Assembly (NCBI GenBank): GCA_031271905.1
Contig: JAISUT010000032.1
Span: forward strand, 13,887-77,886
Source: Acidobacteriota bacterium
GTDB lineage: Bacteria > Acidobacteriota > UBA6911
Reading direction: 5' to 3'
DNA length: 64,000 nt
The translations under genes and the position numbers were made by a program. How positions within the stretch are numbered: the stretch's first letter is position 1; each line of letters starts with the position of its first letter. Of the stretch, positions 245-54,812 are shown one piece after another. A model generated the notes under the pieces. It worked only from the letters and a program-made list of their open reading frames with translations, did not search any database and was not told where the DNA came from.

Positions 245-364
245 GGGAGCCTATAAAACCTCGCAGGCAAGGCGTCGCCGCAGGTCGAAAAGCGGGGTTC
301 GCCGAGGCGAATGGGCATTTTCGACCAAGGCGCGACGCGGCGCCGGGGTTTTCAGAGGCTCCCC
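245..364 (-). repeat. MITE/REP-like palindromic intergenic element, long form, reverse orientation (copy A)
   Basis: cctataaaacctcgcagGcaaggcg...ggggttttcagagg; about 120 bp; matches the other nine copies; sits between a stop codon and the next gene start. Confidence 0.85.
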
Positions 365-4453: not shown

Positions 4454-4515
4454 GAGACCTCTAAAAACCCCGGACGCTGCGTTGCGCCTTGTCTGCGAGC
4501 TTTTTAGAGGTCCCC
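4453..4515 (+). repeat. MITE/REP-like element, short form (copy B)
   Basis: ggagaCCTCTAAAAACCCCGGACGCTGCGTTGCGCCTTGTCTGCGAGCTTTTTAGAGGtcccc; between convergent genes. Confidence 0.9.
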
Positions 4516-4646: not shown

Positions 4647-5048
4647 CTAGAACTTCACGACGCGCGGCTCGGGGTTCGCGAACGAGGAGAAGGTCGCCGT
4701 CGCGTCCTTGAGGTACAGCACCTGCGTGTTGGGATCGTCCACGCTGTAGCGGTCCTTCAGCATCGGATAGGCTTCCAGCATGTGCGCCTTGGCTGCGGCG
4801 CTGTCGTCGTTGACCGCCAGCGCCGCGATGCGGACCCAGGTGCCGGTCGAGGGGTCGAACGCGCTGATCTCGACCTTGGGGTTCGCCGCCATCTGCTTGG
4901 AGACCGGCTTCGACTTGCCCGTCTGGATGTAGAGCTTGCCCTCGAACAGGTCGATGGTGCCGAAAGGACGCACGCGGGGCTGGTCCCCCTCCGCCGTCGC
5001 CAACCAGTATGTGCCGACCTTCTTCACAAAATCATAGACTTCCTGCAT
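4647..5048 (-). CDS. Pyridoxamine 5'-phosphate oxidase-like FMN-binding split-barrel protein
   Basis: 133 aa; pattern typical of the PNPOx/general-stress-protein-26 family (YWLATAEGDQPRVRPF...). Confidence 0.55.
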   Translation of the reverse strand: MQEVYDFVKKVGTYWLATAEGDQPRVRPFGTIDLFEGKLYIQTGKSKPVSKQMAANPKVEISAFDPSTGTWVRIAALAVNDDSAAAKAHMLEAYPMLKDRYSVDDPNTQVLYLKDATATFSSFANPEPRVVKF

Positions 5049-5082
5049 AATGCTTCCTCCTTGGGTTATTAAACAAGTTAAA

Positions 5083-5145
5083 GGGAACCTCTAAAAACCC
5101 CGGATACTGCGTTGCGCCTTGTCTGCGAGCTTTTTAGAGGCTCTC
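5083..5145 (+). repeat. MITE/REP-like element, short form (copy C)
   Basis: Near-identical to copy B (one substitution, gacg to gata); lies between the PNPOx-like gene start and the leuS stop. Confidence 0.9.
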
Positions 5146-12119: not shown

Positions 12120-12770
12120 ATGCTGAACTACATCTGGCTGGCGATGGTGGTCTTGGCCGTCGTGCTGGGCGGCATCAACGGGCGCATCGAGGAGGTGACC
12201 AAGGCCGCCATCGACGCGGCGGGGGGCGCGGTGACGATCGCCATCGGCCTTATCGGCGTGATGGCGCTGTGGCTGGGGGTGGTCAAGGTCGCCGAGGACT
12301 CCGGCCTCATGAAGCTGCTTTCCCGCGCCATCGCCCCCGTATTGAAATGGCTGTTCCCGGACGTGCCGCCCGGGCATCCGGCGATGGGGAGCATGACGAT
12401 GAACATCGCCGCCAACCTGCTCGGGCTCAGCAACGCCGCCACCCCGCTCGGACTGAAGGCGATGCAGGATTTGGAGTCGCTCAACAAGGCGCCCGGGGTC
12501 GCCACCAACGCCATGTGCACGTTCCTGACGATCAACACCGGCAGCGTGCAGTTGATACCGGCGACGATGATCGGCGTGATGGCGGCGGCGGGTTCCAAGG
12601 CGCCGACGGAGATCATCGGCACGACGCTCGCCGCAGGCGTCGCCGCCCTCGCCGTCGGGGTGGCGGTGGCGCGGCTGTTGCAAAACCTGCCGCTGTTCGC
12701 GGTGCGACGGCAGGAGCCGGAGGCGCGACCTGGGCCGCCGGCTTCCGAAAAGCCGGGGGAGGGGGCGTGA
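12120..12770 (+). CDS. Nucleoside-recognition (Gate) domain membrane protein, SpmA-like
   Basis: Hydrophobic; MLNYIWLAMVVLAVVLGGINGRIEEVTKAAIDAA N-terminus typical of SpmA. Confidence 0.65.
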   Translation: MLNYIWLAMVVLAVVLGGINGRIEEVTKAAIDAAGGAVTIAIGLIGVMALWLGVVKVAEDSGLMKLLSRAIAPVLKWLFPDVPPGHPAMGSMTMNIAANLLGLSNAATPLGLKAMQDLESLNKAPGVATNAMCTFLTINTGSVQLIPATMIGVMAAAGSKAPTEIIGTTLAAGVAALAVGVAVARLLQNLPLFAVRRQEPEARPGPPASEKPGEGA

Positions 12771-13332: not shown

Positions 13333-13398
13333 GAGGGAACCTCTAACAACCCCGGACAACGGCGCCAGCGCCTTGCATGCGAGCTTTTTAGACGCCCC
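13333..13398 (+). repeat. MITE/REP-like element, short form, degenerate (copy D)
   Basis: gagggaaCCTCTAACAACCCCGGACAACGGCGCCAGCGCCTTGCATGCGAGCTTTTTAGACGccccc; between convergent genes. Confidence 0.75.
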
Positions 13399-13399
13399 C

Positions 13400-15964: not shown

Positions 15965-16072
15965 GGGAGCCTCCAAAAACCCCGGACGCTGCGTTGCGCC
16001 TTGGTTGAAAACGCCCCTTCGCCTCAGCGAACTCCGCTTTTCGACCTGCGTCTGCGAGCTTTTTAGAGGCCC
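15965..16072 (+). repeat. MITE/REP-like element, long form (copy E)
   Basis: gggagCCTCCAAAAACCCCGGACGCTGCGTTGCGCCTTGGTTGAAAACGCC...TCTGCGAGCTTTTTAGAGGccc; lies between panE and panB inside the cluster. Confidence 0.9.
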
Positions 16073-18644: not shown

Positions 18645-18710
18645 GGGACCTCTAAAAACCCCGGACGCTGCGTTGCACCCTTGATCAAAAACGCCCGTTT
18701 GCCTTGCGCC
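18645..18710 (+). repeat. MITE/REP-like element, truncated long form (left half only, copy F)
   Basis: ggggggaCCTCTAAAAACCCCGGACGCTGCGTTGCACCCTTGATCAAAAACGCCCGTTTGCC; no right terminal repeat. Confidence 0.75.
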
Positions 18711-23924: not shown

Positions 23925-23987
23925 GGGAACCTCCAAAAGCCCCGGACGCCGCGTCGCGCCTTGTCTGCGAGCTTTTTAGAAGTCCCC
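23925..23987 (+). repeat. MITE/REP-like element, short form (copy G)
   Basis: ggggaaCCTCCAAAAGCCCCGGACGCCGCGTCGCGCCTTGTCTGCGAGCTTTTTAGAAGtcccc. Confidence 0.85.
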
Positions 23988-31514: not shown

Positions 31515-31632
31515 GAACCTCTAAAAACCCCGGATGCTGCGTTGCGCCTTGGTCGAGAATGCTCATTCGCCTCGGCGAACCCCGCTTTTCGACCTGCGGC
31601 GACGCCTTGTCTGCGAGCTTTCTAGGGGCGCC
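31515..31632 (+). repeat. MITE/REP-like element, long form (copy H)
   Basis: cgaaCCTCTAAAAACCCCGGATGCTGCGTTGCGCCTTGGTCGAGAATGCTCATTCGCCTCGGCGAACCCCGCTTTTCGACCTGCGGCGACGCCTTGTCTGCGAGCTTTCTAGGGG. Confidence 0.9.
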
Positions 31633-31678
31633 CCACAATGTGTTCGACTGACGGCTTGGCCTTCGCCGAGGTCGCGCC

Positions 31679-32074
31679 TCACTGCGCCACCGCAGCCTCG
31701 GCGAGGGCGGCGACGCGGTCGATCGCATCCACGAACTTCGGGACGTCTCCAGGCAGAGGCTTGGCGATGCGGAAGTCGTCGATGGAGCAGATGGACTGGA
31801 GCTCGTCGAAACGGAGCAGCGACGCCTCCAAGTCGTCGGGGAGCGGCGCGAAGGCGCGGCATTCCTCGACAAAGTCTCGCATGGTGTGGTTTTGCGGCAT
31901 CATCCCCCGACGTGTGAAAAAGGCCATGAAATATTTTTCAATTCCCATCGCCGCGATGTTCTGCACGATCTCGGGGGTGAACACCTGGGGGCGGCGCAAC
32001 GCGCCCCGCACGGTCTTGTGAAACCCCCGCCCTTCCTCAAGGAATTTTCGCCAAATTTCGCCCTCTCCGTCCAT
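31679..32074 (-). CDS. Hypothetical protein
   Basis: ORF with coherent composition; no recognisable motif; start chosen at MDGEGE. Confidence 0.35.
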   Translation of the reverse strand: MDGEGEIWRKFLEEGRGFHKTVRGALRRPQVFTPEIVQNIAAMGIEKYFMAFFTRRGMMPQNHTMRDFVEECRAFAPLPDDLEASLLRFDELQSICSIDDFRIAKPLPGDVPKFVDAIDRVAALAEAAVAQ

Positions 32075-32227
32075 CGTGCGCCCCACCCTTTCCAACCCGC
32101 CAGTCGTCCCCGCGCCTGCTCGGGCGCGCCGCACCCCCGGCTGATTTTAGCAACCGACATCATACCATATGCGCGCACGCCCCTTTTGCCGGCACATCCA
32201 GGATCGGTTCGAGACGAGGGAAGTTGT

Positions 32228-32276
32228 GGAAGTGAGCTCACTTGTTAAAAAGAAGTTAACAAATGAGCTCACTTCC
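32228..32276. promoter_or_regulatory. Near-perfect 21-bp inverted repeat with a 7-bp spacer (operator-like or RNA hairpin)
   Basis: ggaagtgagctcacttgttaa-aaagaag-ttaacaaatgagctcacttcc; one mismatch; each arm contains the palindrome agtgagctcact. Confidence 0.5.
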
Positions 32277-32647
32277 AGGGGTTCCCGGAAAAGCAACACC
32301 TTGCGCGTAAAAACCACATCTATTGCGACATCTATGCCTTACAAAGAATATTCGCGCGTTCGCGCCGATTGGCACGCTTCGTGCAATATATAAAAACGCA
32401 ACGTCGTCGCCGTCGGGAATCGGCTCGGGGTGAAGTAATTCGAGGGCATGGTCGGTTTCCGGCGGTCGGCGGCGTTGCACCAAGGCACACTACGCAAGCA
32501 AGCCTTTCACAAACGCCCCGTCATCACACCTGCCAACCCCACCGGGGCGGGTCGCCGCCGCACATACGGCACCCCGCCCCGCCCCACTATTTTTCAGATG
32601 GCGCGACCAGGCGTCCGCCCCCGTCTTTCGCGGCCTGGAAACCGGCG

Positions 32648-33250
32648 TCACGAACGGGGGCACCCGGCGAGGGGGATGCCCAGCCTGCGGCAGAGGCGGG
32701 CGAAGGACGAGACCGGGAACCCTACGACGTTGAAATAGCAGCCTTCGATGCGGTCGATGAAAAGCGAGGCGAAGCCTTGGATGCCGTAGCCCCCCGCCTT
32801 GTCGCGATACTCCCCCGTGTCCAGGTACCAGGAGATCTCGGCGGCGGACAGGCGCAGGAAATGGACGCGGGAGCAGGTGCAACAGGACGCCGTGCGCCGC
32901 GCCACAACGTCCGTCACGCACAAGCCGGTCAGGACTTCATGCCATCTGCCGCCCAGCTTGCGCATCATGGCTTCGGCTTCGGCGCGGTCGGCGGGCTTGC
33001 CCATGATCACGTCGTCCACGACCACGGCCGTGTCGGCGGCGACGACGCGGCTGTCAGGGTGACGCGCGACCACGCCCCCGGCCTTGGCGCGGGCAAGGCG
33101 GGTGACGTAACGGGCGGGGGTTTCGCGCGGCTTGCGCGGCGGTTCCGGGCCACGGCAGGGGTCGATGTCGAAATGCAGCCCCAGCCCCCGTAAAATCTCG
33201 TTGCGGCGCGGGGACGCCGAAGCCAGAACCCATGCTCCGTCTTTCGTCAC
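32648..33250 (-). CDS. maf: Maf-like nucleoside triphosphate pyrophosphatase
   Basis: VLASASPRRNEILRGLGL N-terminal motif; ~200 aa. Confidence 0.8.
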   Translation of the reverse strand: MTKDGAWVLASASPRRNEILRGLGLHFDIDPCRGPEPPRKPRETPARYVTRLARAKAGGVVARHPDSRVVAADTAVVVDDVIMGKPADRAEAEAMMRKLGGRWHEVLTGLCVTDVVARRTASCCTCSRVHFLRLSAAEISWYLDTGEYRDKAGGYGIQGFASLFIDRIEGCYFNVVGFPVSSFARLCRRLGIPLAGCPRS

Positions 33251-40836: not shown

Positions 40837-40956
40837 GGGAACCTCTAAAAACCCCGGACGCTGCGTTGCGCCTTGATCGAAAATGCTCATTTACCCCGGT
40901 AAACTCCGCTTTTCGACCTGCGGCAGACGCATTGTCTGCGAGCTTTTTAGAGGTTC
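40837..40956 (+). repeat. MITE/REP-like element, long form (copy I)
   Basis: gggaaCCTCTAAAAACCCCGGACGCTGCGTTGCGCCTTGATCGAAAATGCTCATTTACCCCGGTAAACTCCGCTTTTCGACCTGCGGCAGACGCATTGTCTGCGAGCTTTTTAGAGGttctc; lies between HlyD gene 3 and the permease. Confidence 0.9.
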
Positions 40957-50043: not shown

Positions 50044-50164
50044 AGGGAGCCTCTGAAAACCTCGCAGACAAGGCGTCGCCGCAGGTCGAAAAGCGGAGTT
50101 CGCCGAGGCGAATGAGCATTTTCGACCAAGGCGCGACGCGGCGTCCGGGGTTTTCAGAGGTTCC
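50044..50164 (-). repeat. MITE/REP-like element, long form, reverse orientation (copy J)
   Basis: gggagCCTCTGAAAACCTCGCAGACAAGGCG...GGGGTTTTCAGAGGttccc; lies between thiD and the LOG gene. Confidence 0.9.
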
Positions 50165-53288: not shown

Positions 53289-54812
53289 TTATTTCCTGAA
53301 GCGGGAGCAGTCGATGCCGTACTTCTTCACCTTGTAGTTGAGCACGCGCTCGGTCGTGCTCAGTAGGCGCGCGGCGCGGCTGCAGTTGCCCGTCGTGGTC
53401 TTGAGCGCGTCCACGATCAAATCTTTTTCGTAGGACGCCACCGAGTCGCCGAGGGAGACCTTGACGATCGTGCCGGACGCCTCGGCCGTCTGGAGCGTCG
53501 GCGGCAGGTGGTGCCCGTGGATGACGTTGCCGTCGCAGATCAGCACCGCCCGCTCGATGGCGTTCTCCAGCTCGCGCACGTTCCCCGGCCAATGGTAGCT
53601 CATCAGCATGTCGATGGCGGGCGTCGAGATGCGCTTGATGCTCTTGTTGTGCTCGCGCGTGTACTTGTCCAGGAAATAGTCGGTCAGCGCCATGATGTCG
53701 GGCTTGCGCTCGCGCAGGGGGGGGATGAAGATGCTGAAGACGTTGAGGCGGTAATAAAGATCTTCGCGGAACGTCCCCTCGGTGATGGCGTTTTCCAAGT
53801 CCTTGTTGGTCGCCGTGATCAGGCGCGCCTTGATCTTGATGGTCTCCGTGCCGCCCAGGCGCTCGAACTCCCGCTCCTGCAAGACGCGCAGGAGCTTCAC
53901 CTGCGTCGTCAGGTTCAGGTCGCCGATCTCGTCCAGGAAGATCGTCCCCCCCTCGGCCAGCTCGAAGCGCCCCATCTTGCGCGACTGCGCGCCGGTGAAC
54001 GCCCCCTTCTCGTAGCCGAACAGCTCCGACTCGATCAGCGTCTCGGGCAGGGCGGCGCAGCTCACCTTGACGAACGGCTTTTTCGAGCGCGACGAGCTGT
54101 AATGGATGGCGTGCGCGATGAGCTCCTTGCCGGTGCCCGACTCCCCCCGTATGAGCACCGAGGTGTTGGTCCCGGCGACCTGCGCGATCTGCTCGTAGAC
54201 CTGGCGCATCCCGCCGCTGCCGCCGATCATGTTGGAGAAGTCGTAGCGCTCGCGCAGCTCCTCGCGCAGTTGCGTGTTCTCCGCCTGCAGCTTCTTGGTC
54301 TCGGCCTGCACCAGCCGCTCGACGCGCACCGCCTGGCCGATGAACCCGGCGATCACGCGCAGGAACTTGACCGTCTGCTCGTAGTCGCGGTCCTTTTTGA
54401 AGCGCATGTCCACGCCGAGCGCCCCCACGGTCTTGCGCCCCTCCATGATCGGGACGCAGATGTAGCTCAGCTCGTCCTTCAGGTTCTTCCGCTGCACGGC
54501 GCGGTTCAGCAGGAGCGGCTCGCTGCTGGCGCGCGGCACGACTATCGGCTTGCCGCTCTCCACCACGCGCCCCGTTATCCCCTCGCCGATGCGGTACTGG
54601 GCGCGCTGCCCCTCGGGGCTGATGCCGTTGGACGCCTCGATGTGCAGCTCCGAGTCCTCGCGCAAAAGGGTCACGGCGCTGCGCACCATGCCGTGGCGCG
54701 CCTCCAGGATCTCCAACACCCGGTGCAACGAGTGCTTCAGGTTCAACGTCCCCGACAACGCCTGGCTCAGCTCCAAAAGCGTGGTCAACCGTTTGGATTC
54801 CCTGGACTCCAT
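53289..54812 (-). CDS. Sigma-54-dependent transcriptional activator (GAF-AAA+-HTH, NifA/Fis family)
   Basis: Walker A (GESGTGKE); GAFTGA motif; ESELFGYEKGAFTGA; C-terminal HTH; N-terminal GAF. Confidence 0.85.
   Translation of the reverse strand: MESRESKRLTTLLELSQALSGTLNLKHSLHRVLEILEARHGMVRSAVTLLREDSELHIEASNGISPEGQRAQYRIGEGITGRVVESGKPIVVPRASSEPLLLNRAVQRKNLKDELSYICVPIMEGRKTVGALGVDMRFKKDRDYEQTVKFLRVIAGFIGQAVRVERLVQAETKKLQAENTQLREELRERYDFSNMIGGSGGMRQVYEQIAQVAGTNTSVLIRGESGTGKELIAHAIHYSSSRSKKPFVKVSCAALPETLIESELFGYEKGAFTGAQSRKMGRFELAEGGTIFLDEIGDLNLTTQVKLLRVLQEREFERLGGTETIKIKARLITATNKDLENAITEGTFREDLYYRLNVFSIFIPPLRERKPDIMALTDYFLDKYTREHNKSIKRISTPAIDMLMSYHWPGNVRELENAIERAVLICDGNVIHGHHLPPTLQTAEASGTIVKVSLGDSVASYEKDLIVDALKTTTGNCSRAARLLSTTERVLNYKVKKYGIDCSRFRK

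Follow-up and report, generated by a model that had tools for sequence, protein, structure and literature searches.

The window, as we call the whole 64-kb stretch of DNA analysed here, contains at 32075-32647 an intergenic region between two minus-strand genes, one for a 131-aa hypothetical protein and the other maf, which is itself preceded by a large outer-membrane beta-barrel gene. An earlier note on this DNA had named the same two neighbours and the same strand, correctly: Pfam identifies maf, and the public annotation has the hypothetical gene. Its description of the region as 513 bp of AT-rich DNA needs adjusting: because the public call starts the 131-aa gene at the ATG at 32074, the region measures 573 bp, and it is only mildly AT-rich overall. 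GC is 0.58 in the 513 bp first delimited against 0.66 in the window (66%, rather than the ~68 percent that had been claimed), and the AT-rich part is limited to about 32200-32400, where GC falls to 0.46. The features discussed below are as follows.

31679-32074, minus strand: gene for the 131-aa hypothetical protein (public annotation P0001)
32228-32276, no strand: inverted repeat with 21-nt arms and a 7-nt loop, holding both palindromes and an AT-rich 17-bp spacer
32230-32243, no strand: UAS1, candidate activator site, perfect 14-bp palindrome AAGTGAGCTCACTT with core GAGCTC
32261-32274, no strand: UAS2, candidate activator site, 14-bp palindrome AAATGAGCTCACTT with core GAGCTC
32329-32341, plus strand: putative IHF-like site CATCTATGCCTTA, read from alignments, in the AT-rich stretch between the candidate enhancer and the promoter
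32370-32385, plus strand: predicted sigma-54 (-24/-12) promoter TGGCACGcttcGTGCA, with GG at 32371-32372 and GC at 32383-32384
32396-32594, plus strand: predicted sigma-54-dependent small RNA, about 200 nt, with presumed ends
32398-32481, plus strand: conserved 5' hairpin of 84 nt, with a stem of ~25 bp, a conserved internal loop and a GNRA-type tetraloop
32543-32594, plus strand: terminator-like element, a GC-rich hairpin at 32543-32581 (or to 32585) followed by CCCCACUAUUUUU
32648-33250, minus strand: maf (Pfam Maf, E 1.6e-55)
53289-54812, minus strand: sigma-54 activator (a bacterial enhancer-binding protein, bEBP) with GAF, AAA+ (Sigma54_activat) and HTH_8 domains and a GAFTGA motif

The near-perfect 21-bp inverted repeat on which the earlier note centred is present as described. 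Its arms, ggaagtgagctcacttgttaa (32228-32248) and ttaacaaatgagctcacttcc (32256-32276), are complementary at 20/21 positions across the loop aaagaag, and a weaker extension brings them to 31 nt at 84% (32218-32248 / 32256-32286). Each arm is indeed palindromic around GAGCTC, which gives the two 14-bp palindromes listed above, with a centre-to-centre distance of 31 bp, or three helical turns. The stretch that had been pointed out further downstream, TATATAAAAA, was found at 32388-32397. The repeat is far beyond chance: no other in the window combines a loop of 3-20 nt with at least 20/21 complementary arm positions, and nothing of the same quality arose when the window was simulated 100 times with a first-order Markov model. 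A search for other copies, which had been proposed, returned nothing within 3 mismatches in the 64-kb window besides the two sites themselves; with no second copy of the palindrome there, a regulon is not demonstrable.

The 131-aa protein has no match in Pfam or NCBIfam. P0001 itself is attributed to an Acidobacteriota MAG, and its relatives, 51-82% identical, are where named mostly from Treponema, Spirochaetaceae and Planctomycetaceae MAGs, which may be termite-gut lineages; this distribution suggests that the protein has spread horizontally. In Treponema primitia (L003) and in a JGI contig (L002), the homologue lies directly upstream of an HMGL-like (homocitrate-synthase-type) gene, with radical-SAM/Nitro_FeMo-Co (nifB-type) genes nearby, and one homologue is labelled 'HEPN domain-containing' by one source. 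We looked for the palindrome upstream of the homologues in L001-L003, including the one that is 82% identical, and it was absent from all three, so that a tie between the repeat and the 131-aa gene was rejected. Synteny based on Maf, searched in one-genome-per-species contigs, yielded no close comparator: the best relatives are 63% and 57% identical and have a convergent gene directly after maf. The repeat therefore belongs to neither neighbour. One Logan contig (L005) is identical to the window at 100% across the whole intergenic region and is for that reason uninformative as a comparator.

The arrangement on other Acidobacteria contigs

Comparators came from two sources. A scan of metagenome contigs with the pattern GTGAGCTCAC-N19-23-TGAGCTCAC returned 68 loci, most of which were set aside as unrelated tandem or coding repeats containing GTGAGCTCAC. 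In three of them (L099, L129 and L142), AAGTGAGCTCACTT occurs twice, 31 bp apart, TGGCATGTTATGTGCA begins 94-96 bp past the second site, and the sequence after the promoter aligns to the hairpin of the window. Four more loci with the same arrangement (L154, L155, L158 and L161) were reached independently via Tex homologues, one of them, L154, being nearly identical to L099. The comparison set thus consists of the window and seven loci on other Acidobacteria contigs of about 50% GC, with six distinct sequences among the seven. A Treponema origin of these loci, guessed from their GC, was dropped, as the Tex protein beside the module in L142 is named as Acidobacteria.

All eight loci share one order: two palindromes, putative IHF-like site, promoter and hairpin. 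In the ~50% GC genomes the module is mostly flanked by convergent tex and divergent rimP-nusA-infB, another chromosomal position than in the window, where it is next to maf and the 131-aa gene; the palindromes, the promoter and the RNA stay together although the neighbouring genes differ between loci. The distance between the two sites is 30-31 bp in 8/8 loci, the T of TGGCA follows their centres at 99-102 and 130-133 bp, and TGGCAYG-N4-GTGCR is conserved in every locus (8/8). The module was absent near Tex homologues of 80-84% identity (L156, L157, L159 and L160).

Conservation is concentrated in the palindromes. Their identity to the window is 79-100% (86-100% for UAS1 in the seven other loci), against 12-53% for the 17-bp spacer and for the 50 bp that flank the pair of sites on either side. 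The spacer between the sites is AT-rich in every locus, while its sequence is unconserved. Written as pairs 30-31 bp apart, the activator-site motif takes the form AAGTGAGCTCAYTT. In L161 the second site is degenerate (AAAAGAGCTTAATT), and in L155 two symmetric substitutions turn the GAGCTC of the first site into GAATTC and leave its dyad intact. The alignments also show that the homologous loci lack the complementarity that extends the repeat outside the two palindromes. Comparison with relatives, which the earlier note had called for, thus finds the two palindromes conserved and the remainder of the repeat not; the extra complementarity that lengthens it to 21 nt (GG..CC and GTTAA..TTAAC) is peculiar to the window genome and probably incidental. 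Conserved dyads around an unconserved spacer would therefore be protein-binding sites rather than the two sides of an RNA stem.

The same comparison weighs against the idea, also raised in the earlier note, that the repeat is the remnant of a mobile element (a MITE or an insertion-sequence end), or else a chance palindrome in horizontally acquired AT-rich DNA. Such an origin would fit the local GC of 0.46 in a 66% GC genome, the adjacent 131-aa gene with its closest relatives in other phyla, and the presence in the window of a genuine and dense MITE-like family (described at the end). It leaves unexplained why sites and promoter keep a fixed distance in eight loci whose genomes differ in GC, and it sits poorly with the lack of any further copy within 3 mismatches in 64 kb and with the 0 such repeats in 100 simulations. 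Phage and plasmid collections gave no match either, and a pattern match in a viral contig (L004) proved to be a coding tandem repeat. The mobile-element claim is thus unsupported, and we hold a mobile or chance origin to be extremely unlikely.

Several tandem repeats were seen along the way. Arrays of ~30-bp units with GTGAGCTCAC occur at L116 2373-3183, L123 893-1733, L125 1022-1176 and L087 140-550; these long arrays, on metagenome contigs that the pattern scan had returned, are unrelated to the module. On the 1.3-Mb Acidobacteria-like contig L156, ~52-bp tandem units (GTCAAAGGCTCTCCGACAACGAACAAAGGGTCTTTGATCATT...) at 4790-5100, downstream of tex, stand in place of the module.

A candidate sigma-54 promoter and its upstream sites

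On the plus strand, 96 bp past the second palindrome, begins a sequence that agrees with the sigma-54 consensus TGGCACG-N4-TTGCW at 11/12 positions and has the exact GG-GC spacing, its -12 element being GTGCA rather than TTGCA. No sigma-54 match in the window scores higher, and only one, at 12667, equals it. That second 11/12 match, TGGCGCGGCTGTTGCA (12667-12682, plus strand), lies inside a coding ORF (12120-12770, plus strand) and was discarded as a promoter, being probably a chance occurrence. A promoter scan found no sigma-70 promoter overlapping the repeat, and no sigma-54 promoter scoring at least 10/12 faces the 131-aa gene.

The centres of UAS1 and UAS2 lie 133 and 102 bp upstream of the T of TGGCA, which places them at about -159 and -128 from the predicted start. 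The resulting distance between the sites and the -12 element, about 116-147 bp, fits the 100-140 bp that is usual for enhancers of this kind (PMC2709558), and this spacing supports the reading of the palindromes as an enhancer. Dyad sites of such activators generally lie some 80-200 bp upstream, mostly as two or more that face the same side of the helix, and the two palindromes agree with this. Between sites and promoter, the alignments reveal a block about 30-45 bp upstream of the promoter that may be an IHF-like site. In the window it is weak, with two mismatches to the consensus WATCAANNNNTTR at 9 specified positions; the match is perfect in L142 (TATCAATAACTTA) and L158 (TATCAACATGTTG), and the other loci have 1-2 mismatches.

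No rpoN gene was found in the 64-kb window, nor any RpoN-box signature. The domains of the protein encoded at 53289-54812 indicate that the genome uses sigma-54 activators. This protein is the only bEBP in the window and is NifA-like, scoring 517.9 bits against the NifA equivalog, under the cut-off of 528.85. The NifA motif TGT-N10-ACA is not present in the palindromes or their flanks. The activator gene is neighboured by genes for a leucine-rich-repeat protein and a TonB-dependent receptor.

The earlier note had also suggested an operator for a dimeric regulator. [quoted passage not shown] The repeat does lie about 155 bp upstream of the ATG of this gene, an extended -10-like element, TGgTATGAT, can be read on the minus strand at about 32159-32167, and the placement of both palindromes on one face of the DNA would also suit a tetrameric repressor. 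Yet, measured from the putative -10, the sites would lie about 65-115 bp upstream, which does not correspond to an operator position, and the distance that is conserved is the one to the sigma-54 promoter. Moreover, the palindrome is missing upstream of the homologues in L001-L003, even the 82%-identical one, and the divergent neighbour in the other seven loci is rimP, or else lies off the contig, and is never the 131-aa gene. We regard this arrangement as improbable. Of the three suggestions in the earlier note this one nevertheless comes closest, in that there are two conserved dyad sites; at about -128 and -159 from the predicted sigma-54 start, their position is that of an enhancer rather than an operator, and they are unlinked to either flanking gene.

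The conserved hairpin downstream

The sequence following the promoter is predicted to be transcribed into an RNA of about 200 nt. Transcription would start near 32396, ~12 nt past the GC of the -12 element and within the A-rich run TATATAAAAA, and the terminator-like hairpin (dG -27.7 kcal/mol, z -3.9) would set its end. As a terminator the element is imperfect, with a U run that begins 5-9 nt past the stem, and this late start is why a simple terminator scan missed it. The 3' parts of the RNA differ between loci and end in different hairpins, terminator-like ones being present in the window, L099 and L158. No ORF downstream of the promoter is conserved in frame across the loci, two of which have no start codon at the candidate position, and a small protein was accordingly rejected.

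The 5' part, in contrast to these variable 3' parts, is conserved as a hairpin (dG -52.2 kcal/mol, z -7.25 for 32398-32481). Seven distinct sequences were aligned across ~98 nt, giving a consensus structure of 29 pairs in which 95-96% of cells are paired, compared to 27-53% in controls with slid partners, and compensatory changes affect 4 pairs (8 cells) as against 0-1 when partners are slid by 1-3 columns; most stem pairs are invariant across the seven. The internal loop, GGCAAACGGGG / GAAGGCAAUG, is near-invariant. The tetraloop is GUAA, or GCAA in L099 and L161, so that its GNRA form is kept. Several U.G pairs occur in the hairpin, one of which (alignment columns 35/72) is found in all sequences, and one U.G closing pair is replaced by C-G in L161. 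A covariance model (R1) gives 81-115 bits for the plus strand, against no more than 26 bits for the opposite one, with the window match at 32388-32483 (81 bits). Since the G.U pairs fit the plus strand only and the model scores are asymmetric between strands, the RNA would be read from the plus strand.

An Rfam scan of the region, one of the checks proposed in the earlier note, brought no matching family at gathering or permissive thresholds. Rfam 15 at the gathering score found nothing in the window but one tRNA elsewhere, a scan of 32000-32750 at E<=10 gave only chance miRNA-type hairpin matches far below threshold, and a scan of L099 and L129 at E<=1 placed nothing on the RNA. The locus thus apparently encodes a small hairpin RNA that is conserved in Acidobacteriota and undescribed.

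The earlier note had considered a structured small RNA as well, and in one sense this was close: the region does hold a conserved hairpin, at 32398-32481. What does not hold is that the repeat itself forms it, its own complementarity being unconserved. If the repeat worked as a transcribed hairpin, whether as a structured sRNA, a processing site or a terminator, one could point to the stable folding of the 101-nt segments around it on the two strands (-43.9 and -45.6 kcal/mol, z -8.2 and -7.1) and to the 14-bp stem that is possible in every locus, which follows from both palindromes having nearly the same sequence. But the complementarity outside the palindromes is lost elsewhere, with a spacer only 12-53% identical, and the substitutions in L155 keep the site's own dyad and not the pairing between the sites. 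Neither strand has a U run after the repeat and the terminator scan is silent there, no Rfam family emerges beyond the chance miRNA-like matches far below threshold, and the one conserved promoter that can be recognised is located downstream of the repeat. A function of the repeat as RNA is therefore very improbable in our view.

Proposed mechanism and known systems

Taken together, these observations argue, at a probability that we put at roughly 80%, that the repeat is an upstream activating sequence (enhancer) through which a bEBP drives a sigma-54-dependent small-RNA gene on the plus strand. Dimers of the bEBP would bind the two 14-bp palindromes through a Fis-type helix-turn-helix. Three helical turns apart, the palindromes would be on one face of the DNA, which would help the active oligomer to assemble. 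Bending of the AT-rich stretch that separates the enhancer from the promoter, and that holds the putative IHF-like site, would let the activator reach RNA polymerase-sigma-54, which would wait in a closed complex at TGGCACG-N4-GTGCA (32370-32385) until the promoter was opened through ATP hydrolysis. Transcription from near 32396 would then yield an RNA of about 200 nt, the conserved part of which is the 84-nt 5' hairpin. Binding, looping, sigma-54 dependence, the ends of the transcript and any function of the RNA are what we infer from the sequence and its conservation. An AT-rich stretch in a GC-rich genome would here be promoter architecture, that is, bendable DNA between enhancer and promoter, and not foreign DNA.

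The strongly conserved internal loop and the GNRA tetraloop suggest that the hairpin may be a protein- or ligand-binding RNA or a trans-acting regulator. One could go further and assign it to a new class of regulatory RNAs that bind proteins or ligands, as the dedicated output of a single bEBP signalling pathway in Acidobacteriota, with enhancer, promoter and RNA moving together as one cassette. The cassette would then have travelled between genomes of very different GC and to different chromosomal positions, and the RNA may be tied to nitrogen status, a tie proposed because the only bEBP of the window is NifA-like and homologues of the 131-aa protein lie in nif-type clusters in Treponema. We consider this extension unlikely.

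The enhancer reading has close precedents. The enterobacterial sRNA genes glmY and glmZ have a sigma-54 promoter, dyad sites for a bEBP upstream and IHF sites in between (PMC3045617). The window resembles these GlrR/QseF-controlled genes of Enterobacteriaceae in its predicted stand-alone small-RNA gene, -24/-12 promoter, upstream dyads and putative IHF-like site. It belongs to a different phylum, and its RNA has no sequence or structural similarity to GlmY or GlmZ (no Rfam match). GlrR recognises three sites of the type TGTC-N10-GACA, whereas the window has two contiguous 14-bp palindromes, AAGTGAGCTCACTT. The Qrr RNAs of Vibrio are likewise short sRNAs; no promoter other than a sigma-54-dependent one is known for them, and LuxO sites lie about 100-150 bp upstream of it. 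The window shares this layout of short sRNA, sigma-54 promoter and upstream bEBP sites, as predicted from its sequence, and differs in its palindromes, the LuxO sites being TTGCA-N3-TGCAA. The Qrr RNAs are also Hfq-dependent and have multiple stem-loops with a single-stranded seed, unlike the one long hairpin with an internal loop seen here.

At E. coli glnAp2, two strong NtrC dyads, spaced by ~three helical turns, precede the sigma-54 promoter by slightly more than 100 bp. The paired dyads of the window have a similar spacing and a similar distance to the sigma-54 promoter; NtrC sites are of the TGCACC-N5-GGTGCA type, however, and glnAp2 is IHF-independent and drives a protein-coding operon. 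The NifA UAS comes to mind because the single bEBP of the window resembles NifA, at whose promoters IHF also acts, but the palindromes do not contain TGT-N10-ACA and no nif gene is adjacent in the window. Finally, a pair of perfect 14-bp dyads on one face of the DNA is reminiscent of LacI/GalR-type operators, from which the window differs in that its sites overlap no promoter and no repressor gene is linked to them.

As this design is already known from glmY/glmZ and Qrr, the locus extends a known kind and overturns nothing. Literature searches on the motif and on sigma-54 sRNAs in Acidobacteria or Treponema found nothing relevant, and both the activator motif and the RNA family appear undescribed. 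Hardly any work exists on regulatory RNAs or sigma-54 regulons in Acidobacteriota, and the locus provides a compact, testable unit, with a 14-bp activator motif, a promoter and a conserved RNA, that could be used to find the cognate enhancer-binding protein, the signal it responds to and the targets of the RNA.

A dispersed repeat of the window deserves a separate mention. This MITE/REP-like element of ~120 bp has terminal inverted repeats of ~15 bp (GGGAGCCTCTAAAAA ... TTTTTAGAGGCTCCC) and is present in at least 9 copies in the 64 kb, including internally deleted forms of about 55-60 bp. It has no match in Rfam at the gathering score and is unrelated to the inverted repeat, from which one copy lies about 600 bp away. 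The copies in the window are these.

31515-31633 (plus), 50045-50163 (minus), 40839-40953 (plus), 256-361 (minus) and 15967-16070 (plus): MITE-like copies
4457-4510, 5082-5141, 13334-13399 and 23927-23979: short forms
18648-18704: partial copy

A segment of L142 downstream of the RNA that resembles positions 31515-31587 of the window was considered as part of the RNA and rejected, as it belongs to this dispersed repeat. Related copies lie at L142 326-398 and L154 1178-1254, and another was noted by eye at L161 about 4820-4948; twice such copies lie just downstream of the small-RNA hairpin in other Acidobacteria contigs.
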